The notes under the pieces: model-generated | What the model saw: the letters and a program-made list of their open reading frames with translations, nothing else | What the model was told of the DNA's origin: nothing | The model's database searches: none | Made by a program: the position numbers and the translations under genes | Shown here: one piece after another, positions 2,887 to 42,062 of the stretch | Numbering within the stretch: position 1 is the first letter of the stretch | How the letters are laid out: every line of letters begins with the position of its first letter | NCBI GenBank assembly: GCA_030637745.1 | Contig: DAOWFX010000043.1 | Location: 3,424-67,423, forward strand | Origin: Clostridia bacterium | GTDB taxonomy: Bacteria; Bacillota; Clostridia; Christensenellales; UMGS416 | Direction of reading: 5' to 3' | DNA: 64,000 nt

Positions 2887-4461
2887 TTATTGATTATTGT
2901 AAAAGTCCATTTGTGTTTGTGCGCCTGCTTCGAGGTACTCTTTTATGAAGCGGTCCCAGTACTTATCGGACAATGCTCTTTTGCCGGAAATAAAATTATC
3001 TATCCACGTATCCTTTACTGCATTAAATGCTGATAATTTATTTGTCGGTGTATATCCATTGTCCGCAAATGGATTGGTGTAGATATTTGAGTATTTTAAA
3101 AGCGAATAATACCAGTCTATTGCACTTTGGGGAAAGTCATTGAGTGTTACCACTTCAATTTGTGTAATGATGTTTCTGATTTCGTGATATTCTTGCATTC
3201 CCTCTGTTGTACCATCTTTGTTATACTTCCATCCTTCAGAGTCAAATACTTGATAATTTGGCACCTTTGTGTTGCTATCTAAAACATAGTGTTCTCCTTG
3301 TATCCCATAAGAGATGATATCCATTCCTTGTTCAGTAAAGAGGAATTCACACATATCCAAAATTCTGTTCGGTTCTTCAAAATACACAGAAATCATAGCA
3401 GCTGTTGATAAAGTATCTCCGGTTGTGCGACAAGGACCCAAATTTCCTGTCAATGATACAGGAAGGGGTACAAGGAAACCATAGGGATTTGTCTCTTTTA
3501 ACTTTGCATTTAGTGTAGGATAATTGCTGATATCTGTTGCTATCGCTCCTGCTTTTCCGGATGTTATTTTTTCCTGCGACACAGCGCCATCGTGCAACAG
3601 ATAGTCGTTGTCGAATGCTTTGGTTTGATACATTTCATTAAGCCAAGTAAGAGCATTACGCATGTCATCAAGTAAAAACCAATCTACATACTGACCATCT
3701 ATATCCTTAAAAATATAGCTGCCTGTAAATCCTGCAAAAATAGGATCAAGATATCTTTGGTTTCCGGTAGAAAACCCATCGGTTCCAAGCCCATCAAAAT
3801 CATTTTCTACAAAGGCTTCCATCAGTAAACGAAACTTATCCAATGTATCGACTGTGTTGATATTTATGCCGGCTTTTTCGGCCCAGTCACCGCGTACCAG
3901 ATATACTAAATCATCCGGTCCTTTTAGATTTGGCAAGCAGTAGAGTTCATCGTCATCTGTTTTGTATTTGTTGATCTCTTTTGCATTTAGTATGTATTGT
4001 GTTAGTTTTGGATAGACATCTTCTTTATCGTCCAAATATGTTCCAATATCAATTACTGCACCTGCTTGGAGAAGCTTTTCATATGATAATTGATCAGTAG
4101 ATAACACGTCCAGATTCATATAATCGGGAATAACACCATATGATATATGCATACTAAGTATTTCGCTATATGTTTTTGTAGGATCAGATGTTGTGTCTAT
4201 GAAATTAAATTTCACATTGTATTTTTCTTCAAGAAACTCAACTACGATATCCTTTGAAGATAGTGCTACGCGAGTGTTTACAGCTCCTCTTGGCATAAAG
4301 AGCAACTCAAGTGTTTCAGCGTATGGAACTTCTTGCACCGCTTGTGTGGGTTCTGGTGTGGGGGTAGATGCAGGTACTACTTCTTTGGGAGTGCATCCAA
4401 CAAATATTGTAATGACTAATAAAATGATGATTGATATCATTTTATGATGAGGTTTTATCAT
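2887..4461 (-). CDS. large extracellular solute-binding lipoprotein (ABC SBP family 1, LplA-like)
   Basis: 524 aa. Signal peptide with lipobox ITIFVGC, then a Pro/Thr-rich linker. The C-terminal YWDRFIKEYLEAGAQTQMDFYNN is typical of ~500-aa sugar-binding SBPs. AGGAG lies 5 nt upstream of the ATG. No permease or ATPase gene is adjacent. Confidence 0.7.
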   Translation of the reverse strand: MIKPHHKMISIIILLVITIFVGCTPKEVVPASTPTPEPTQAVQEVPYAETLELLFMPRGAVNTRVALSSKDIVVEFLEEKYNVKFNFIDTTSDPTKTYSEILSMHISYGVIPDYMNLDVLSTDQLSYEKLLQAGAVIDIGTYLDDKEDVYPKLTQYILNAKEINKYKTDDDELYCLPNLKGPDDLVYLVRGDWAEKAGININTVDTLDKFRLLMEAFVENDFDGLGTDGFSTGNQRYLDPIFAGFTGSYIFKDIDGQYVDWFLLDDMRNALTWLNEMYQTKAFDNDYLLHDGAVSQEKITSGKAGAIATDISNYPTLNAKLKETNPYGFLVPLPVSLTGNLGPCRTTGDTLSTAAMISVYFEEPNRILDMCEFLFTEQGMDIISYGIQGEHYVLDSNTKVPNYQVFDSEGWKYNKDGTTEGMQEYHEIRNIITQIEVVTLNDFPQSAIDWYYSLLKYSNIYTNPFADNGYTPTNKLSAFNAVKDTWIDNFISGKRALSDKYWDRFIKEYLEAGAQTQMDFYNNQ

Positions 4462-4536
4462 AACTTCTCCTATTATATCATCTGAATATATATATGAAGT
4501 TTAACAGAATATGTCAAGGAAATGCAAATAGTACAT

Positions 4537-4938
4537 TTATAGAACAGAACCTTCTTTTAAATCATCAACTAATACTCGCATACGAGAAGCAATAATGTCA
4601 CGCACACGCGCATAAAAACTTTCATCCCTACCTTCAGGATCTGCAAGGGACCAATCGATACAAGTAACACCTTGTATTTTACATGGATTGTCTACATCCA
4701 TTGATATAATTAGATCCGGTTTTTCAATATCATCAATGCTTTTTGTTTTTTGCATTGAGATATCAATACCAATATCTTTCATTGCTTTGATTGCTTCAGG
4801 ACGGATATTGTCATCCGGCTGATTACCTGCGCTGGAAGGAATCATAATGTCACTCCCCAATTTACGCGCCAAGCCTTCTGCCATCTGTGAACGACAACAG
4901 TTTCCATTGCTTAAAAATGCTACTTTTACTTTGTTCAT
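4537..4938 (-). CDS. ArsC / low-molecular-weight phosphotyrosine phosphatase family protein with a non-canonical P-loop
   Basis: Start moved to the internal ATG (MNKVKVAFL...), which is preceded by GGGTGG. P-loop-like FLSNGNCCRSQMAEG and a C-terminal DWSLADP, as in thioredoxin-coupled ArsC. The usual first Cys of CX5R is Ser here (see findings). Confidence 0.7.
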   Translation of the reverse strand: MNKVKVAFLSNGNCCRSQMAEGLARKLGSDIMIPSSAGNQPDDNIRPEAIKAMKDIGIDISMQKTKSIDDIEKPDLIISMDVDNPCKIQGVTCIDWSLADPEGRDESFYARVRDIIASRMRVLVDDLKEGSVL

Positions 4939-11135: not shown

Positions 11136-13055
11136 ATGATTACATTAAATGTGTTGAAAAAACGGACACTTTTAGTAATATTTTTGATCATATTAGGAAT
11201 CAGTTTCTATATCCTATCCAGATACAATTATAGTTTATTTCATTTGATAATAGAATATTCAACGGTTACAATCGGAATTTTGATATTCCCCATAGCCATG
11301 ATTACAAAAAAATATAAGCCAAATACAATCATAGAAAGAATCGGATACGGAATGTTGGCTGTTTCATTCATGATCCTTTTACATGCGATTACATATAAAG
11401 GCATGGACATCATAGAAGGCTATGATTCAAACCTTCCGACTCAGCTATGGATTGGCCTTAACTATATACAATCTATTAGCATTTTATTAGCAATTATTTT
11501 TCTTAAAACAAAAATTAAAAATTGGATATTTATTATTATTTATATGTTTTTGGCGATTAGTCTAACATATTTATGCTTTGCCGAGATTTTTCCTGATTGT
11601 TTTATTGAAGGGGAAGGATTAACTCCTTTCAAGATTGTCAGTGAATATATCATAATGAGTATATATATTGCTTCTTTTGTTTTGCTGTTTACAAAAAGCA
11701 AAAAAGAAATAAGAAGCAATTACAAAGCAATTCCAATTGCTCTTGTGTTGTTTATTGTTGCGGAGGTTATGTTTACACTATATTCGGATGTTTATGGAAT
11801 TCAAAACTTTTTAGGCCATTATATGCGTTTAATTGGTTTGCTTGTAATTTACCTGGATATTTATAAAGTTAATATAAAAAATCCCTTTAACACAATATTT
11901 GACGATTTAACAAAGTCTGTAAAGTCTTTGTCTGAAAGCGAAAAAAGACTTCTAGCTATGTATAATCAAGCAGCTGTAGGAATATGCAATATTTCATTAG
12001 AGGGTACGATATTAAATGCAAATAAGAAGTACTGTGAAATGCTTGGATATAGCTTAGAAGAACTAAAAGAACTTTCATTTATAGACATTACACATCCTGA
12101 AGATATTGAAATGAGCAATAATTATTGGTCAAAGATAACAAACGATGAAATTGAAAGCGTTAATTTTGAAAAAAGGTATATAAGAAAAGATGGAGAGATT
12201 GTTTATGTTATTCTTTCAATGACACTATTGAAAGATGAACATGATAAACCAATGTATTCTGTTACGACAATTCAAGACATCACTCAGCAAAAGAAACTCG
12301 CTGAGGATAACATGCAAATGGAGGCGCACTTAAGGGATCAACAGAAATTGGAATCGATTGGAACGTTGGCAGCCGGAGTCGCACATGAAATAAACAATCC
12401 TATAAGCGGCATCATGAATTATAGTCAATTGATTTTAGATTCATCAGACAGCCAAAACAATGAATATGCTCAAGAGATTATCTATGAGACTGAACGCGTT
12501 GCGACAATAGTGAAAAACCTACTACAGTTTTCAAGGCAGGAAAAGCAATCATACTCTTTGGCAAGAATAGAGGATATAATTAATCGAACACTGTCATTAA
12601 TCAACACCATTTTTAAGCATGATCAAATTGATTTAAGCGTTAATATTCAAAAAGATTTACCGGATATTAAATGTCGTAATCAACAGATTCAACAAGTATT
12701 GATGAACTTATTAACAAATGCAAAAGATGCTTTAAATGAAAAATATAAAGGGTATCATGAAAACAAGAAACTGAATCTGACGTGCAAAACTATAATAAAA
12801 CGCAAGAAAGATTGGTTAAGGATTACTGTTGAAGATTTTGGAGCCGGTATTCCAAAATCAGTTCAGAAAAGAATATTTGATCCCTTCTTCACAACGAAAG
12901 ATCAAGATAAAGGAACAGGATTAGGGTTATCTATTAGCTATGGTATAATAAAAGAGCATTATGGAGACATTAGTTTTGATACAAAGATTGGAGAGCATAC
13001 GAAGTTTTATCTGGACTTACCAATAGATAATGGATGGGAGCTTAAAAAAAACTAA
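11136..13055 (+). CDS. sensor histidine kinase (polytopic N-terminal sensor domain, PAS, HisKA, HATPase_c)
   Basis: 639 aa. About 7 N-terminal hydrophobic helices. PAS-like segment (MYNQAAVGICNISLEGTILNANKKYCEMLGY). H-box AAGVAHEINNP, N-box LMNLLTNAKDAL, G-boxes EDFGAGIP and GTGLGLSI. No response regulator anywhere in the window. Confidence 0.85.
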   Translation: MITLNVLKKRTLLVIFLIILGISFYILSRYNYSLFHLIIEYSTVTIGILIFPIAMITKKYKPNTIIERIGYGMLAVSFMILLHAITYKGMDIIEGYDSNLPTQLWIGLNYIQSISILLAIIFLKTKIKNWIFIIIYMFLAISLTYLCFAEIFPDCFIEGEGLTPFKIVSEYIIMSIYIASFVLLFTKSKKEIRSNYKAIPIALVLFIVAEVMFTLYSDVYGIQNFLGHYMRLIGLLVIYLDIYKVNIKNPFNTIFDDLTKSVKSLSESEKRLLAMYNQAAVGICNISLEGTILNANKKYCEMLGYSLEELKELSFIDITHPEDIEMSNNYWSKITNDEIESVNFEKRYIRKDGEIVYVILSMTLLKDEHDKPMYSVTTIQDITQQKKLAEDNMQMEAHLRDQQKLESIGTLAAGVAHEINNPISGIMNYSQLILDSSDSQNNEYAQEIIYETERVATIVKNLLQFSRQEKQSYSLARIEDIINRTLSLINTIFKHDQIDLSVNIQKDLPDIKCRNQQIQQVLMNLLTNAKDALNEKYKGYHENKKLNLTCKTIIKRKKDWLRITVEDFGAGIPKSVQKRIFDPFFTTKDQDKGTGLGLSISYGIIKEHYGDISFDTKIGEHTKFYLDLPIDNGWELKKN

Positions 13056-13232: not shown

Positions 13233-13260
13233 TTGACATATAATTGAAAAATGATATACT
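13233..13260 (+). promoter_or_regulatory. candidate sigma-A promoter
   Basis: TTGACA (13233-13238), 16 nt, TATACT (13255-13260), upstream of the AGAGGTG SD and the ATG at 13281. Confidence 0.45.
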
Positions 13261-13280
13261 ACCCAAGAGGTGCAATTCAT

Positions 13281-14351
13281 ATGGAAAAGAAGAAGAAAAA
13301 CAACGTTGTGAAACAGATCCCTATTTTTTTAGTATTTTTATTTGTCGGCGTTTTATTTGGAGTTTTTTTAGCAACGCAAGAACTAAAAATAGCACAACCT
13401 TTCTGGTGGGTAGTAGTTTCAATATTAATATCGTTTTTTTTGGTCATCAACATTCATGAATTCGGACACTTCATTGTTGGAAAGATATTAGGTTATTCAT
13501 TGCTTTCATTTAGAATAGGTATATTTAGCTTTGACAACATTAACGGCAAGATGAAACTGACCATAAAAAAGAATAAAGGCTATAGCGGTTTGTGCGCTAT
13601 GATTTCAAACGATGATTCAATGAATAAATTTGCATTCTATATTGCAGGCGGTATATTGATCAATTTTTTAACGGGCATACTATCTTTAGTCGTTGGCATA
13701 GCGATTAATCAGTCCCACAATTTCCTCTCAATACTTTTAATCTATTTGGGTTTCCTTTCGCTAGCTGTTTTTGTCATAAATGGTATTCCATTAACCAAAA
13801 ATAATGCTATTACTGATGGAACCTTCCTATACAATATTATTTTGAAAAAGCCATATGCCCACACGCTTTCAACGCTTATTAAAGCACAGACGATGATTGC
13901 TGCCGGAACAAGACCAAGAGAACTAAATATAGAGATTGACAAAGAAGCGGAGTTTGATTTGTTTTCTTATTTATACGCGTATTACAGTGCCCAAGATGCA
14001 GAAGAATTAGAAACTACGAAATACCTTATTGAACAAATTGAAAAAAACATAGATAAAGCCAATTCATTTAATCTTCCTGCGATCTGCTATGAGATTTGCT
14101 TTTGTGCTTGTATCTTTGGTGATAATGAAAAAGCTGTTGATTTCTATGATAGAGTATCAAAAACTTTGCAAAAAGATAATGACATAAACGGATTAAGAGT
14201 AAAAGCATATTATGCGTATTACATAAATAATGATAGTGAAAAAGCAAAAAATCTTTGCAATGAAGGCTTGAAGGTGAAGGATAAATACCCAATCATAGGT
14301 ATCGCTGTTTATGAAGAAAATCTAATCAATAAGCTTTTAGATATTATTTGA
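13281..14351 (+). CDS. membrane metalloprotease-like protein (M50/site-2-protease-like HExxH) with a C-terminal helical-repeat domain
   Basis: Start moved to MEKKKK (SD AGAGGTG 8 nt upstream). HEFGH inside a TM helix. A later NGIPLTKNNAITDG resembles the M50 NxxPxxxxDG ligand motif. The soluble C-terminal ~150 aa is TPR-like by composition. Confidence 0.55.
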   Translation: MEKKKKNNVVKQIPIFLVFLFVGVLFGVFLATQELKIAQPFWWVVVSILISFFLVINIHEFGHFIVGKILGYSLLSFRIGIFSFDNINGKMKLTIKKNKGYSGLCAMISNDDSMNKFAFYIAGGILINFLTGILSLVVGIAINQSHNFLSILLIYLGFLSLAVFVINGIPLTKNNAITDGTFLYNIILKKPYAHTLSTLIKAQTMIAAGTRPRELNIEIDKEAEFDLFSYLYAYYSAQDAEELETTKYLIEQIEKNIDKANSFNLPAICYEICFCACIFGDNEKAVDFYDRVSKTLQKDNDINGLRVKAYYAYYINNDSEKAKNLCNEGLKVKDKYPIIGIAVYEENLINKLLDII

Positions 14352-14429: not shown

Positions 14430-14460
14430 TTGACTCTCACCTAACGTAAGATGATATAGT
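14430..14460 (+). promoter_or_regulatory. MerR-type promoter (19-bp spacer with central dyad)
   Basis: TTGACT (14430-14435), 19 nt, TATAGT (14455-14460). The imperfect dyad CTAACGTAAG (14441-14450, ACGT core) is centred in the spacer. Directly upstream of the MerR-GGDEF gene. Confidence 0.6.
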
Positions 14461-14493
14461 ACTATTATACAGTACTGCTTAAGGAGATCACCG

Positions 14494-15390
14494 ATGATAC
14501 CCATTGGCGCGTTTGCAAAAGAAAACAATGTAACCATTAGAGCATTGCATCATTATGAACAGTTGGGATTGATCATCCCAAATAATACAGATGAATTTAC
14601 CGGTTATCGATACTATGATGAAAGTCAATCATCTGCAATCATGACAATCAATTATCTAAAGTCTTTAGGATTTTCTTTGTCTGAAGTCAAACAAATGATG
14701 AGTTCTGAGATGGATGCTAGTGTCTTAAAACAACATTTGTATGCAAAGAAACAACAGGCATTAATGGATGTGAATTCTACAAATATTCGATACAATCGGA
14801 TTGTTGAATTGCTCAATGTGCTTGATAAGCAAACGCAAAATATGAAGATTGATTTGAAGGAGATTATTAATATGGATAATAACGATATTAAAATAGAGAT
14901 GAACGAACATGAACTATTCAATTTTGAAGCAAGAATAATGTATGAGCGTGCAAATAAAAACAACTTGCCATTGTGCATTTTATGTGTAGATATTGATCAG
15001 TTCAAAAGAGTTAACGATAACTATGGATACGATATTGGAGATATTGTCATTGAGAGAATAAAAAATTCGATTGCAGACAACTTGACAGAAATCAACAAAA
15101 ATAATAACAAGCAGCACTCCATTATGGAGCGTGATGCAGGTGATGAGTTCAAAATGATAGTGGCAGACGCTATGGATGTTTGCAGGAAACTTGCTCGAAG
15201 CATAATAGATGATGTTAAAGAAATTGACTTCAATGATGTTGCAGATGAGTTACATATGACAGTAACAGTTGGTATCGCGTCCATTGATTCTTGTAGAGGG
15301 TCCAGTAGTCACTTGTTTCACTTAGCAGAAAGCGCACTATATGAAGCCAAGAGTGAAAAGCGAGGAAGTTATGAAGTTTATCAAGAATAA
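14494..15390 (+). CDS. MerR-family HTH regulator fused to a GGDEF (AGDEF variant) domain
   Basis: 298 aa. N-terminal MerR HTH (IGAFAKENNVTIRALHHYEQLGLIIP...TGYRYY), a coiled-coil linker, then a GGDEF fold (VDIDQFKRVNDNYGYDIGD ... RDAGDEFKMIV ... VTVGIAS ... ALYEAKSEKRGSY). AAGGAG SD. Confidence 0.8.
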   Translation: MIPIGAFAKENNVTIRALHHYEQLGLIIPNNTDEFTGYRYYDESQSSAIMTINYLKSLGFSLSEVKQMMSSEMDASVLKQHLYAKKQQALMDVNSTNIRYNRIVELLNVLDKQTQNMKIDLKEIINMDNNDIKIEMNEHELFNFEARIMYERANKNNLPLCILCVDIDQFKRVNDNYGYDIGDIVIERIKNSIADNLTEINKNNNKQHSIMERDAGDEFKMIVADAMDVCRKLARSIIDDVKEIDFNDVADELHMTVTVGIASIDSCRGSSSHLFHLAESALYEAKSEKRGSYEVYQE

Positions 15391-15401
15391 TTATGAGAAA
15401 A

Positions 15402-15430
15402 GAAAAAAGCTACTCTGTAAAAGAGTAGCT
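15402..15430 (-). terminator. intrinsic terminator of the alpha-oxoamine synthase gene
   Basis: AGCTACTCT-gtaaa-AGAGTAGCT (perfect 9-bp stem). The A-run on the + strand gives a T-run on the - strand. A second nested hairpin (CAGACTGT...ACAGTCT) follows at about 15431-15478. Confidence 0.7.
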
Positions 15431-15496
15431 CAGACTGTCGGTATAGTCGACACTTATCAGGTTTTTCAACAGTCTACAGACTATTATACTTTTCTT

Positions 15497-16684
15497 TTAA
15501 GCTTCCATTTTTACTTCGTCAAAAACTTTTTTGATTGCATTAAACGCATAGTCCATTTGCTCTTTGGTGTGCGTTGCAGTGTAGCTTGTGCGCAACAAGC
15601 ATTGTCCTTCAGGGACTGCAGGTTGAACGACAGGATTTACATAGACTCCTTCATCGAGTAATTTCTTTGTTATGATACAAGTTCTCAATGTATTATATGT
15701 GAATATCGGGATAATTGCTGTAGTACCATCGAGTATCGGGATGTTCGCATCCTTCAGTTTTGTGCGCATATATTGGCTGATATCTAATAATGCAGCTATG
15801 CGCCAAGGCTCACTTCTGATAATGCGTAGTGCTTCAAGTGCTGCTGCTGCATTGGAAGGTGGCAGAGATGCGCTGAAGATAAACGGACGAGATTTGTGCT
15901 TGATGTAGTGGACAATTTCTTCACTTGCTACAAGACACCCACCGAGTGATGCCATAGACTTTGAAAAAGTGGTCATGATGATATCCACTTCATCTTCTAG
16001 GTCAAAGTGAGATGCAGTGCCTCTACCGCCTTTTCCGACCATACCCATACCATGTGCATCATCAACCATGATACGCGCGCCGTACTTTTTGCCTAGGGCG
16101 ACAATTTCTGGTAGCTTTGCAATATCACCAGACATTGAAAACACACCATCTACGATAATTATCTTTCCACTATTTTCTGGTAATCTCTTTAGTACGCGCT
16201 CCAAGTCTTCCATATCATTGTGTTCATACTTCACACTCTTTTTAGCAAAACTTAAGCGACATGCATCGCGTATGCTGGCATGGTTTTCTGCATCATTGAT
16301 AATATAATCATGAAACCCTACAATGCAGGAAATGATTCCAAGGTTGGTTTGATAACCAGTGGAGAATGTTAGCGCAGCTTCTTTGTTGAAAAAGTCTGCA
16401 AGCTCTTCTTCTAATTGTACGTGCAAATCTAATGTACCATTTAGAAAACGAGACCCCGAACACCCTGTGCCGTATTTATCAAGTGCATCTTTAGCTGCTT
16501 GTATGGTACGTGGATCAGATGTTAATCCCATGTAATTATTTGATCCAATCATGATAACGCGTTTTCCATCCATAATGACTTCGGTGTCCTGTCCTGATTC
16601 CAATGCATGAAAATAAGGATAGAAACCCGCGGCGATTGCTTCTCGTGCTTCTGTGAAGTCCTCAAACTTCTTGAAAATATCCAT
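15497..16684 (-). CDS. PLP-dependent alpha-oxoamine synthase, serine-palmitoyltransferase-like
   Basis: 395 aa. SGSRFLNGT and PLP-lysine motif TFSKSMASLGG, DDAHGMG. The overall layout matches the KBL/BioF/SPT family, and the two motifs look closest to bacterial SPT as I recall it. AAGGAG SD. Confidence 0.8.
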   Translation of the reverse strand: MDIFKKFEDFTEAREAIAAGFYPYFHALESGQDTEVIMDGKRVIMIGSNNYMGLTSDPRTIQAAKDALDKYGTGCSGSRFLNGTLDLHVQLEEELADFFNKEAALTFSTGYQTNLGIISCIVGFHDYIINDAENHASIRDACRLSFAKKSVKYEHNDMEDLERVLKRLPENSGKIIIVDGVFSMSGDIAKLPEIVALGKKYGARIMVDDAHGMGMVGKGGRGTASHFDLEDEVDIIMTTFSKSMASLGGCLVASEEIVHYIKHKSRPFIFSASLPPSNAAAALEALRIIRSEPWRIAALLDISQYMRTKLKDANIPILDGTTAIIPIFTYNTLRTCIITKKLLDEGVYVNPVVQPAVPEGQCLLRTSYTATHTKEQMDYAFNAIKKVFDEVKMEA

Positions 16685-16851: not shown

Positions 16852-17667
16852 ATGCGTGAGATTAAAAAGAAAGTAGCACTAATAACAGGTGCTTCATCGG
16901 GAATTGGAAAAGCGATCTATATACAACTCATAAAGCAAGATTGGATAGTCTACGGTACATCACGAAAAATAAAAGAGAAACAAACAGAAAAGATTGATGG
17001 TGGGTTGATGATATATCTTGATGTGAACAATCAACAATCAATAGATGATGTATTATCTATTGTTAAGGATAAGCAGGGCAGATTGGATGCATTAATTAAT
17101 AATGCAGGATATGGAATCGCAGGTTCTATTGAAGATACATCTCATGAGGAAGCGATGGCACAGTTTGATACCAACTTCTTTGGTGTGTTGTCTATGATAC
17201 AAGCATCACTTGAATTACTAAAGCGTAGCAAAGGTATCATTGTGAACATAAGCTCTGTTGCAGGAATATTATCTATTCCATTTCAAGGAATGTATTCAGC
17301 TAGCAAGGCTGCAATGGAGTTGATGAGTGAAGCAGTGAGAATGGAGCTTAAAGATGATGGTGTTCGTGTCAGTATTGTAGAGCCGGGAGACACAAAGACT
17401 GAATTTACAGCAAATCGTCAAATGATTGAAAATGCATATACCGCTGGTTACGAAAAGAAGTTAAGGGCATCTGTTGCAAGGATGGAAAAGGACGAGCAAA
17501 ATGGCACACCACCAGAAGCAGTTGCTAAGATGGTATGCAGATTGATTAAAAGGAAGAATCCGCCTATGAGAAGATCAGTAGGATTTTCGTATCAAGTATT
17601 ATTGTTCCTAAAGAGAATTTTGCCTAATCGTTTGGTACTGTGGGTAATTGGGAAAATGTATGCATAA
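16852..17667 (+). CDS. short-chain dehydrogenase/reductase (SDR)
   Basis: 271 aa. TGASSGIGKA, NNAG, catalytic YSASKAA. Divergent from the alpha-oxoamine synthase gene. Confidence 0.85.
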   Translation: MREIKKKVALITGASSGIGKAIYIQLIKQDWIVYGTSRKIKEKQTEKIDGGLMIYLDVNNQQSIDDVLSIVKDKQGRLDALINNAGYGIAGSIEDTSHEEAMAQFDTNFFGVLSMIQASLELLKRSKGIIVNISSVAGILSIPFQGMYSASKAAMELMSEAVRMELKDDGVRVSIVEPGDTKTEFTANRQMIENAYTAGYEKKLRASVARMEKDEQNGTPPEAVAKMVCRLIKRKNPPMRRSVGFSYQVLLFLKRILPNRLVLWVIGKMYA

Positions 17668-39329: not shown

Positions 39330-42062
39330 TTGAATACATTAACAAAAACAAAGGAAGACAGTACAAAATTCTTACGCATGTTGTTTGATTCCATAGACAG
39401 TGCAATCATTGTTTATGATGTAATCAATCAAGGATTAACAGGTGATGATTATCTTATCAAAGATATGAATGAAACATCTATGTTAATTGAACAACACAAA
39501 TTGGAGGAAGTCAAAGGGAAATCAATTAAAAGCCTTCGTAATAATGTTGAAGAATTTGGCATCATAGAGGTATTTAAAAAGGTTTGGGACACAGGAGAGC
39601 CGGCACACTTTCCTGCAAAAGCATATAAAGAGGGCAATATAGAAGTGTGGTTTGAAAATCGCATATTCAAGCTCCCTACAGGAGAGATTGTTGCACTATA
39701 TGATGATATTACACAACATATACACAAGGAAAATAAGTTAAATAGAAAGCTTATGATGGAAAGTATCATAAAGGATATTGCTATGTTGGGGCTTGAAAAA
39801 ATATCCTTAAACGAGTTTAAAGACAGAGGAATTGAAATACTCGGAACAAGGCTTGAAGCATCTCGAGTATATGTTTTTGAAAATGATTCCAAAATAAACA
39901 CCACCAGCATGACAAATGAATGGATAAAAAAGAGCAAACATTCAAGCTTGTATAAATTCCAAAACGTGAATAATAAACAACACAATTGGATAATCAATCA
40001 AATGAAAAATAATCAGATTATTTCTTATAACAAGATATCTGATATTCCCGACAAATACACACAAAGAATACTACAAAGATTTGAAATAAATGCCTTTACA
40101 TTACTTCCGATATTTATTTCCGGAGAATACTATGGTTTTCTAGGATATGATAAGTGTTTATTTGAGTTTGATCATGAAAATGTGGAAACAGATATTTTGA
40201 TGACGATATCCAATATCTTTTCAGAAGTTATTACACGAAAAATTGTTGAAAGATCATTAACAGAAAGAGACTTTATGATGCGGTCACAATTTGGCTATAG
40301 TGAAATTGGCATTATCATAAAAGACAAACACGAAAACACATTTCACGTCAATAAAAAAGCAACAGAAATCATGCGGTGCACTGAAGAAGAATATGTAAAA
40401 ATAGATTTCTATAAAGCAACACATCCTGATGATTTAGAAGAAAGCGTCGTATATTATGATGCATTAAAATCAGGAGAGATAGATAATTATCAGCACCAAA
40501 AAAGGATGATTACAGAAGACGGCAGTATTATTTATGTTATTCACACAGGATCTTGTTATAAAAACGAGAAAGGTGAAGTGAGTCTTATATTTTTAACCAT
40601 GCAAGACATTACTGACCAGAAGAAGATGGAAAGAGAGCTTTTTGAAGAAAAAGAATATCTCAGGATTACATTGCAATCTATCGGTGATGGGGTTATCGCA
40701 ATTGATAATAATACAAACATCACAATGATTAATACCATAGCAGAAGAAATGACAGGTTACAGATACGATGAAGCTATAGGAAAGAAACTTAATGAAGTGT
40801 TGGAAATCTATGATAGTGTCTCCAGAGAGAATATTATTAAACCATTAGATAGAGCAATAGAGTCTGAGGAAATCGGTGAATTAACAGGTGAAGTAATCCT
40901 TAAAAGACGAGATGCAACAGAAAGAATTATTTCTGATATTATTACACCAATAAAGAATGTTGACGGAGATATCGCAGGATATGTACTAGTATTTAGAGAT
41001 ATTACAGAAGAGAAGAGACGAAATGAAAAAATGATTCATATCAGTCAGCATGATGGATTAACAGGATTATATAACAGAAGATTTTTTGAAGAAGCATTAA
41101 CACTTTTTGATCAACAAAACAGATATCCTATTTCATTAATTATGGGTGATTTGAATGGACTCAAGATTACTAATGATGTATTTGGTCATGAAGTAGGGGA
41201 TGAATTGTTGATAAAAACTGCTTCAGTTTTAAGAAAACATGCAAGACCTCAAGATATACTTGCGCGTTGGGGAGGCGATGAATATGTTATGCTTATGCCG
41301 GATACTGATCTTGAAACTGTGCGAAAAATCAATCGTGCAATATACAAAACATGTGGTAAGTATGAGAATACTACAAGTAGCGAAGTTACTCCATTAAGCA
41401 TTTCCTTAGGATACGCAACACATGAGGATGATAGCAAAAACATTATGCAGCTTATTAAAGAATCAGAAGATTTCATGTACAAAGGAAAACTACTAGAAAG
41501 CAGAAGTACGCATAGCAATATTATTTCTTCAATCAAGAAAACATTGTTTGAAAAAAGCCATGAGACAGAGGCGCATTCAGAGCGACTAAAAACTATATGC
41601 AATATGATGGGGAAAGCCATTGATCTTAGCGAACAACAACTCAATGATTTAGAACTTTTTGCGATGTTGCATGATATTGGTAAGATTACTATTGAAGACA
41701 ACATTCTGACAAAAGAAGGAGAATTGACTCCTGAGGAGTGGCAAGTGATTGAAAGACATCCAGCTACAGGTTATCGTATTGTCCAATCTGCTCCGGAACT
41801 TTCGCACATTGCAGATTACATTCTCGCACATCATGAAAGATGGGATGGTAAAGGATATCCACATAGAATAAAAGGCGAGGCTATTCCCGTACTTGCAAGA
41901 ATACTTTCAATTATTGATTCATATGATGCAATGATATCTGATAGACCCTACAGAAAAGCAATGAAAAAAGAAATAGCAATCGAAGAAATAAAAAACTGTG
42001 CAGGAAAGCAATATGATCCACGCTTAGTTCATATCTTTTTGGAGATTGCAGATTCAATTTAA
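39330..42062 (+). CDS. multidomain c-di-GMP signalling protein: PAS/GAF sensory modules, GGDEF (GGDEY variant) and HD-GYP
   Basis: 910 aa. TTG start. Several PAS/GAF-like blocks. GGDEF domain (HDGLTGLYNRRFF ... RPQDILARWGGDEYVMLMP). HD-GYP domain (LHDIGKI ... HHERWDGKGYP ... IDSYDAMISDRPYRKA). Confidence 0.9.
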   Translation: MNTLTKTKEDSTKFLRMLFDSIDSAIIVYDVINQGLTGDDYLIKDMNETSMLIEQHKLEEVKGKSIKSLRNNVEEFGIIEVFKKVWDTGEPAHFPAKAYKEGNIEVWFENRIFKLPTGEIVALYDDITQHIHKENKLNRKLMMESIIKDIAMLGLEKISLNEFKDRGIEILGTRLEASRVYVFENDSKINTTSMTNEWIKKSKHSSLYKFQNVNNKQHNWIINQMKNNQIISYNKISDIPDKYTQRILQRFEINAFTLLPIFISGEYYGFLGYDKCLFEFDHENVETDILMTISNIFSEVITRKIVERSLTERDFMMRSQFGYSEIGIIIKDKHENTFHVNKKATEIMRCTEEEYVKIDFYKATHPDDLEESVVYYDALKSGEIDNYQHQKRMITEDGSIIYVIHTGSCYKNEKGEVSLIFLTMQDITDQKKMERELFEEKEYLRITLQSIGDGVIAIDNNTNITMINTIAEEMTGYRYDEAIGKKLNEVLEIYDSVSRENIIKPLDRAIESEEIGELTGEVILKRRDATERIISDIITPIKNVDGDIAGYVLVFRDITEEKRRNEKMIHISQHDGLTGLYNRRFFEEALTLFDQQNRYPISLIMGDLNGLKITNDVFGHEVGDELLIKTASVLRKHARPQDILARWGGDEYVMLMPDTDLETVRKINRAIYKTCGKYENTTSSEVTPLSISLGYATHEDDSKNIMQLIKESEDFMYKGKLLESRSTHSNIISSIKKTLFEKSHETEAHSERLKTICNMMGKAIDLSEQQLNDLELFAMLHDIGKITIEDNILTKEGELTPEEWQVIERHPATGYRIVQSAPELSHIADYILAHHERWDGKGYPHRIKGEAIPVLARILSIIDSYDAMISDRPYRKAMKKEIAIEEIKNCAGKQYDPRLVHIFLEIADSI

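Follow-up and report, generated by a model that had tools for sequence, protein, structure and literature searches.

A gene in the 64,000-nucleotide stretch of a Clostridia bacterium genome analysed here (the window, from contig DAOWFX010000043.1) encodes a MerR-type protein whose C-terminal part is a GGDEF domain. One open reading frame (ORF; 14494..15390, plus strand) of 298 amino acids joins a winged helix-turn-helix (HTH), a coiled coil, a linker and the GGDEF domain, and a promoter of the kind remodelled by MerR proteins lies ahead of it (Table 1). We consider it rather likely that this gene forms a one-gene, self-regulating cyclic di-GMP (c-di-GMP) module. Cyclases of c-di-GMP are normally governed by sensor domains and by product inhibition, and the transcription factors of the c-di-GMP network normally only read the signal; if the module works as we propose, a MerR regulator would have a GGDEF domain for its effector module.

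In the proposed mechanism, the N-terminal MerR part would dimerise through its long helix and bind its own promoter at the dyad inside the over-long spacer of 19 bp. The MerR switch would set the access of RNA polymerase to DNA left mis-phased or under-twisted, as in BmrR, Mta and TipA; we expect such DNA-distortion control by the dimer of the full-length (L) product because of its family membership and promoter anatomy. The GGDEF domain, in place of the effector-binding domain, would be a catalytically competent cyclase without the I-site of product inhibition, and its state (occupancy by GTP or product, or pairing with another GGDEF domain) would be the input to the MerR switch. The level of cyclase would be controlled by transcriptional feedback instead of the I-site, and this feedback could be either positive and bistable, as in PdeL, or negative, as a substitute for the I-site. 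From the same mRNA, a free GGDEF domain (the short, S, product) is probably translated from an internal Shine-Dalgarno (SD) sequence and the ATG of Met127, analogous to TipAS beside TipAL. The data show the architecture, the fold, the conservation of residues, the promoter and operator with their conservation and single occurrence, and the conservation of the internal SD and start in nucleotides; we infer DNA binding, the sign of the regulation, the enzyme activity, the short form and the identity of the signal from sequence and comparison.

Table 1. Features of the MerR-GGDEF locus, in window coordinates.
Feature	Positions	Strand	Basis or remark
-35 hexamer TTGACT	14430..14435	+	Final bases double as the outer left arm of the operator
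19-nt spacer CTCACCTAACGTAAGATGA with MerR-type operator	14436..14454	+	Read directly
-10 hexamer TATAGT	14455..14460	+	Read directly
SD AAGGAG, 7 nt, ATG of the L product	14481..14496	+	SD duplex energy -8.2 kcal/mol
Full-length (L) ORF	14494..15390	+	298 aa: MerR HTH, coiled coil, linker, GGDEF
MerR winged HTH, residues 4-71	14503..14706	+	Pfam MerR_1 and MerR
Long helix alpha5, residues 75-112	14716..14829	+	38-residue helix in the AlphaFold model
Candidate internal start: AAG GAG (K122 E123) as SD, 9 nt, ATG (M127)	14857..14874	+	Nucleotide-level conservation
Predicted short (S) product, GGDEF only, 172 aa	14872..15390	+	Inferred from internal SD and start
GGDEF domain, residues 139-291	14908..15366	+	N174, D183, R213, K286 and R290 present
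DID metal site D166-I167-D168	14989-14997	+	Sequence
Motif A215-G216-D217-E218-F219	15136-15150	+	Sequence; R213-D214 precede (RDAGDEF, 15130-15150)
Hairpin between convergent genes	15407..15431	.	Sequence

The fusion protein and its promoter

Profile matches and structure prediction agree on the two halves of the protein, which the earlier note had read as a MerR HTH and coiled coil joined to a GGDEF fold. At the N-terminus, Pfam MerR_1 (PF13411) matches residues 4-71 with an E value of 2e-13 and PF00376 with 2e-8, both exceeding the cut-off, and the best solved relatives of the HTH among PDB sequence matches are the Lmo0526-type protein 3qao, EcmrR, Mta, TipA and BmrR. At the C-terminus, Pfam GGDEF (PF00990) matches residues 139-291 with an E value of 4e-20 (72.5 bits against a cut-off of 23.8), and the NCBIfam model TIGR00254 also exceeds its cut-off, at 78.8 bits. 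An AlphaFold model built from 47 homologues (mean predicted local distance difference test, pLDDT, of 85) contains the winged HTH, a helix over residues 75-112 and a confident alpha/beta C-terminal domain, with a poorly defined linker (pLDDT 56-70 over residues 100-140). When the modelled C-terminal domain was compared with solved structures using Foldseek, it matched the GGDEF domains of DosC (4zvf) and of a Vibrio cholerae protein (6eib) with TM scores of 0.79-0.88 and a root-mean-square deviation of about 2 A. The possibility that this region is not a GGDEF fold, which the earlier note had singled out as fatal to its reading, is thus removed. Helix alpha5 is expected from the model to form the antiparallel dimerisation coiled coil. 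A metal- or redox-sensing MerR protein was ruled out from the sequence, which has no Cys/His cluster within or beyond helix alpha5; since there is no Cys in or after the coiled coil, the GGDEF domain is left as the sole candidate effector module.

The promoter was read directly as TTGACT, 19 nt and TATAGT, in agreement with the earlier note, and its -10 hexamer ends 33 nt upstream of the ATG; transcription is expected to start at about 14467. No competing promoter with a 16-18-nt spacer scores above 9/12 in the intergenic region. The element TTGAC[TCA]-19 nt-TAnnnT, with the operator dyad, precedes the gene in 19/19 homologous loci with usable upstream DNA, 20-90 nt ahead of the start codon. 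These are the loci of the window, of two congeners, of five members of a second genus, of metagenome contigs, of a Bacilli metagenome-assembled genome and of four members of a clade with about 25% identity; one more locus (L084 of G015), with 86 nt of upstream DNA at a contig end and no promoter, was left out as uninformative. TTGAC is invariant in 12 aligned homologous promoters, and the TAnnnT of the -10 element is kept in all loci. The homologues share phylogeny, so that these counts overstate independence, which tempers the reading. In the 2.67-Mb genome of the organism (G000), TTGAC[AT]-N19-TAnnnT has 123 matches, and a single match is therefore not significant alone; the one described here is meaningful because it lies 33 nt before a MerR gene and recurs in 19/19 homologous loci. 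All 28 experimentally confirmed promoters of the MerR family covered by a published survey have spacers of 19-20 bp (PMC7722741). Across G000, spacers of 19 nt (123 matches) exceed those of 18 nt (71) and 20 nt (92), a small excess that might reflect several MerR-type promoters or chance.

Within the spacer, the inner dyad CTAACGTAAG at 14441-14450 is an 8/10 palindrome, which becomes perfect (CTTACGTAAG) in the close relative G002, a complete genome of 3.6 Mb. The positions invariant in the family are C14436, T14437, C14440, C14441, G14446, A14449 and G14450, or, in the numbering of the 31-mer promoter, C7, T8, C11, C12, G17, A20 and G21 (in the first 12 sites). They are symmetric about position 14 of the 31-mer (A14443, the eighth nucleotide of the spacer), 2.5 bp upstream of the centre of CTAACGTAAG. 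A kink centre at -24 has been reported for BmrR (PMC7722741), and the operator symmetry centre, at about -24, agrees with it. The earlier note had placed the dyad at the centre of the spacer: the operator does lie inside the spacer, but not exactly at its middle, the symmetry sitting 2.5 bp upstream as in Pbmr. The window 31-mer is identical to Pbmr (TTGACTCTCCCCTAGGAGGAGGTCTTACAGT) at 21/31 positions, the promoters of the family are closely similar to both Pbmr and Pmta (TTGACCCTAACGTTGCGTGATTGTTTACGAT; both from Supplementary Table 2 of PMC7722741), and that of L083 has its first 15 nt in common with Pbmr. The operator differs by clade along with the protein, with CCTTAnnTAAGG types in some and TGACAnnnTGTCA types in others.

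G000 and G002 each have a single copy of the clade-specific promoter pattern; G001 has one copy before the gene and one further, poor match with 3 mismatches. The pattern is absent from G003, a congener without the MerR-GGDEF gene. Conservation in 19/19 loci, one copy per genome and absence from the gene-less congener bear out the suggestion of the earlier note that autoregulation is likely.

The leader between the -10 hexamer and the SD sequence keeps an AGTACT-containing element (14458-14476 in the window; also in L082 and L085-L087), which reads AGTACT...CAGTACTGCTTAAGGAG in the window and (A/C)AGTACTTATT in relatives. No Rfam family matches the window at threshold.

A candidate internal start ahead of the GGDEF domain

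The linker holds the only conserved non-catalytic motif of the family, K/E122-E/G/R123-x3-M127, and its conservation can be followed at the level of nucleotides. In 18/19 genes the codon aligned with M127 is ATG, or GTG in L089 and L099, with an SD sequence 7-10 nt ahead of it. The SD variants are AAGGAG, GAGGAG, AAGGGA, AAGGGG, AGGGGA, GAAGGAGG or GAAAGGAG: the encoded residues vary (KE, EE, KG, RG, EGG, ER) and the purine run stays. Codon choice points in the same direction, with Lys122 encoded by AAG in 10/10 genes and Glu at 122/123 by GAG in 15/17, against a 36% use of each codon across these genes. The duplex energies of the internal SD sequences (-7.3 to -14.0 kcal/mol) compare with those of the annotated starts (-7.1 to -13.8). 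At -9.5 kcal/mol, the site of the window is past the 1% quantile of the internal in-frame starts of the genome, of which 1.9% (ATG or GTG codons) reach -8 kcal/mol, and in 14/19 genes the site at M127 has the strongest SD among the internal in-frame starts. None of the other 13 GGDEF genes of the genome has an SD sequence and start ahead of its GGDEF domain (best value -2.9). The mRNA at the internal start is less folded than the gene median in 19/19 genes, and two database proteins, P0026 (172 aa) and P0145 (159 aa), start exactly at the M127 residue.

Since the SD sequence is kept at the nucleotide level despite amino-acid change, and since two genes use a GTG start, we lean, by a modest margin over even chances, towards a second, GGDEF-only product made from the internal start. 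Some observations pull the other way: the conservation of Met127 and K/E122-123 might have its reason in the protein, and the AT-rich linker would be poorly folded anyway. They leave room for an autoregulated MerR-GGDEF cyclase with a single product, in which the Lys/Glu and Met of the linker are protein features that, for example, contact the DNA-binding domain of the partner. We hold this to be a real but lesser possibility. E123 is indeed invariant and M127 more than 90% conserved among the closest 47 proteins, the AT-rich linker is unstructured by nature, and SD-like sequences arise by chance at 1.9% of internal starts. Yet in other members E changes to G and K to R or E with the purine run kept, the R of the ER variants is encoded by the rare AGG codon, Val127 is GTG in both cases, the near-exclusive use of AAG and GAG contrasts with the 36% background, and the spacing is always 7-10 nt.

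The sole member of the 19 without the internal SD and start (L103:3001-3906) also has a degenerate HGDEF motif, and may be a decaying or re-purposed copy.

Because an antiparallel MerR dimer would separate its two C-terminal domains, a free S form would be an attractive partner for completing catalytic pairs, one S joining each of the distant GGDEF domains. The ligand domains of BmrR and TipA contact the DNA-binding domain of the partner subunit (PMC7722741, PMC7762955). In a more speculative version, to which we give a rather low probability, the gene would be a pulse or memory device: DNA-bound L would hold its GGDEF domains apart and inactive, and docking of S, made from the same mRNA, would both complete the catalytic pairs and serve as the 'ligand' flipping the MerR switch at the promoter of the gene. 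Were this true, transcriptional feedback would replace the I-site, and the module would be the cyclase counterpart of the digital switch of PdeL.

Probable cyclase activity and comparison with known systems

The equivalents of D327, N335, D344, E370, E371 and K442 of PleD are invariant in 47/47 close homologues, and include D166, N174, D183, D217 and K286 of the window protein. The equivalent of PleD G369 is kept in 46/47, and the position of R290 (equivalent to PleD R446) is R or K in 42/47. The first residue of the GGDEF motif is G in 40 of the 47 proteins, A in 4 and S in 1, and most of a larger collection of 103 proteins read GGDE[FCYLIM]. The AGDEF motif, the DID site and the absence of an RxxD I-site, all listed in the earlier note, stand on direct reading of the residues and on alignment to DgcR: the window protein has KQHS where DgcR has RKSD, and no member of the 47 carries R..D at that position.

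Because the catalytic residues are invariant and most members have GGDEF, synthesis of c-di-GMP is more likely than sensing alone, and the MerR-GGDEF protein is probably a working enzyme and not an inactive sensor. Conservation of this kind speaks for catalysis or, failing that, for the binding of Mg-GTP. Several features weigh against this reading. In the window protein A replaces the first G of the motif, and of the 14 GGDEF domains in the genome only one diverges further than its own, which scores 73.7 bits. The N-terminal DxLTGLxNR turn is absent, so that the Pfam match begins at model position 12; in its place are MNEHELFNFE in the window protein and TGHExF in relatives. Finally, an antiparallel MerR dimer would put the C-terminal domains at opposite ends, and a catalytic GGDEF pair within one dimer is not obviously possible.

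These same features (the AGDEF motif, the divergent domain without the DxLT turn and a dimer geometry that disfavours GGDEF pairing), together with the placement of the GGDEF domain where a MerR protein has its effector domain, would suit a pure transcription factor whose GGDEF domain senses GTP or c-di-GMP without synthesis, like BrlR or the receptors with degenerate GGDEF domains. We regard this as unlikely. The family has no RxxD I-site, though this is the usual c-di-GMP-binding site of GGDEF receptors, and invariance of the metal, guanine, phosphate and catalytic positions in 47/47 proteins, with mostly GGDEF motifs, is unexpected for a receptor without catalysis. Moreover, AGDEF can be active: VCA0965, an AGDEF enzyme of Vibrio cholerae, makes c-di-GMP (PMC3974145). 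VCA0965 resembles the window protein in its active-site motif and has measurable cyclase activity, but carries an unrelated N-terminal part and lacks a DNA-binding domain.

The genome encodes a c-di-GMP network of 14 GGDEF, 2 EAL and 1 PilZ domains and a GGDEF-HD-GYP-type protein. This last protein, an 893-aa PAS-PAS-GGDEF-HD_5 protein at 39378-42056 (+), is a second c-di-GMP enzyme in the window.

The MerR-GGDEF gene would combine an autoregulated module of the MerR/TipA type with a GGDEF cyclase, and the systems closest to it in logic are TipA, PdeL and DgcM-MlrA. The tipA gene has two start codons that yield TipAL and TipAS, the latter consisting of the C-terminal domain only, in a minimal autoregulated system (PMC7762955); AlbA/AlbAS is a second case with this layout. 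With the TipA class (TipAL/TipAS of Streptomyces lividans, SkgA, Mta) the gene shares a promoter with a 19-bp spacer, probably autoregulated here too, and a MerR HTH and coiled coil that belong, by their PDB matches, to one branch. In the proposed design it would also share the one-gene layout with a C-terminal domain acting as both sensor and effector, and the two products predicted here. The C-terminal domain itself differs, TipAS (PF07739) in one and GGDEF in the other, as would its output, antibiotic sequestration there and a second messenger here, and PF07739 has no Pfam match in the MerR-GGDEF protein. The protein is thus similar to the TipA class in design only and is not a member of it. 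If L and S products are both made, as in TipA, this would be a new means of controlling GGDEF pairing.

BmrR and Mta of Bacillus subtilis share the TTGACT-19-TAnnnT promoter with the operator in the spacer and the symmetry centre at about -24. In contrast to them, the MerR-GGDEF protein has no GyrI-like drug-binding domain and no efflux-pump target, and its only detectable operator is its own. PdeL (YahA) of Escherichia coli, a LuxR-HTH-EAL 'trigger' phosphodiesterase that sets c-di-GMP regimes (bioRxiv 10.1101/2021.10.01.462762; PMC5052742), also joins a domain of c-di-GMP turnover to one that binds DNA, and it feeds back on transcription of its own gene. PdeL degrades c-di-GMP and uses a LuxR-type HTH at an ordinary promoter, whereas here a probable synthesising domain is joined to the DNA-distortion switch of MerR. 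No cyclase counterpart of PdeL is described in the literature that we searched, and the MerR-GGDEF protein, if our proposal is true, would be this synthesising counterpart.

That a GGDEF domain is able to act on a MerR switch is shown in E. coli by DgcM (YdaM). Its GGDEF domain contacts MlrA, a MerR-like regulator, at the C-terminal (ligand) domain, and the resulting activation of MlrA depends little on synthesis of c-di-GMP (PMC3715855). The fusion resembles, and if true would be, a covalent version of that partnership, which itself involves separate proteins, a PdeR control layer, a csgD target and a DgcM that has an I-site and PAS domains. BrlR of Pseudomonas aeruginosa is also a MerR-family activator responsive to c-di-GMP, with a 19-bp spacer in its own promoter. 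Unlike the fusion, it binds c-di-GMP through its DNA-binding and coiled-coil part, has a GyrI-like domain, and has neither a GGDEF domain nor c-di-GMP synthesis. The compactness of the present module (a promoter of 31 bp and one gene of 0.9 kb) makes it a possible part for synthetic biology.

Targets, family and genomic surroundings

A position weight matrix (PWM) of the 19-nt spacer, run over the genome, scored its own site at 28.3 bits and the reverse strand of that site at 15.8. No second operator rose above the maximum of shuffled controls (about 15 bits) in a way that stood apart, the next score being 15.5. The gene is monocistronic and has unrelated neighbours in different lineages. Since the operator appears to be single in the genome, the main target of the protein is expected to be its own gene, and regulation mainly of this gene is the most likely outcome from the sequence data. 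Two limits lower our confidence in this: the PWM detects only sites that resemble the autoregulatory one, so that weaker targets are possible, and the assembly is a draft of 156 contigs, 87% complete.

The PWM of the whole promoter returned two weaker sites with 19-nt spacers, C109:8400 and C155:41658, which we judged to be targets of other MerR paralogues and rejected as targets of the fusion protein. The first (C109:8400-8430, plus strand, at a contig end) is the promoter TTGACTCTCACACGATGTTAGGCATTATACT before a paralogous MerR gene (MFKIGDFSKLIRVSVRMLRYYDEVGLF...); it has a 19-nt spacer and its first 11 nt in common with the MerR-GGDEF promoter, and cross-talk between this paralogue and the MerR-GGDEF promoter is possible. 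The second (C155:41658-41688, plus strand) is a promoter with a 19-nt spacer, TTGACTCTCCCTCTACTGGAGGTACTACAAT, before a 364-aa BtrH_N/DUF4872 (C39-like) protein, and probably serves some MerR paralogue.

Such paralogues raise the alternative that another MerR protein of the BmrR/Mta type serves the 19-bp promoter, and that the HTH of the fusion acts elsewhere or only as a dimerisation scaffold. The similarity of the operator to Pbmr and Pmta would allow it, as would the fact that one MerR paralogue or more in the genome lies behind a promoter of like sequence (C109:8400, TTGACTCTCACACGATGTTAGGCATTATACT). We nevertheless think it improbable: the promoter accompanies the gene in 19/19 loci of very different genomes, and the operator varies by clade with the protein and is missing in the congener without the gene.

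A check of domain architectures for MerR plus GGDEF, which the earlier note had proposed, turned up a rare family of Bacillota only, with about 77 clusters (at 90% identity) carrying both domains among 5.8 billion proteins. In a set of 1.84 billion representatives, full-length members make up roughly 60 of the best 150 matches, and about 306,000 clusters contain a GGDEF domain at E <= 1e-10. The family occurs in 2/217 sampled genera of the class of the organism and in 4/61 genomes of its own family. After the MerR-GGDEF proteins, the next-best whole-protein relatives, and the closest to the N-terminal domain outside that group, are MerR proteins of the BmrR type with a GyrI-like domain. In a profile search of contigs keyed on the MerR HTH motif, L001 was the only full-length relative among the matches listed, and the other 79 loci, ordinary MerR genes, were ignored. 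Members are named only 'diguanylate cyclase' in databases. The earlier note knew of no characterised MerR-GGDEF fusion, and full-text literature searches for MerR-GGDEF, HTH-GGDEF and DNA-binding diguanylate cyclase architectures likewise found no paper. A chance fusion, an assembly artefact or a decaying gene, which a draft in 156 contigs might suggest, is refuted to near certainty: independent assemblies, complete genomes included, carry about 100 distinct homologues that are full-length, equal in length and free of internal stops.

No neighbourhood or operon partner is conserved across lineages, except within the genus and at L102. Upstream of the gene, on the same strand, are a protein with a weak Peptidase_M50 match and a helical tail (13251-14351, plus strand) and a MASE3-PAS-HisKA-HATPase kinase (11136-13055, plus strand), neither of which is conserved beside the MerR-GGDEF gene in other lineages. 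Downstream, and within the genus only (also in L083 and L087), lie a convergent aminotransferase of the alpha-oxoamine-synthase type (15497-16684, minus strand) and an SDR gene (16852-17667, plus strand); this association is genus synteny and supports no functional link. The hairpin between the convergent genes is clearly the terminator of the aminotransferase gene on the minus strand, and transcription of the MerR-GGDEF gene probably stops there as well. At L102, the locus of a distant member, the MerR-GGDEF gene (3001-3951) is followed after a gap of 2 nt by a Crp/Fnr-type regulator (3954-4628; cNMP_binding and HTH_Crp_2), a possible partner that would read c-di-GMP in the manner of Clp/Bcam1349.

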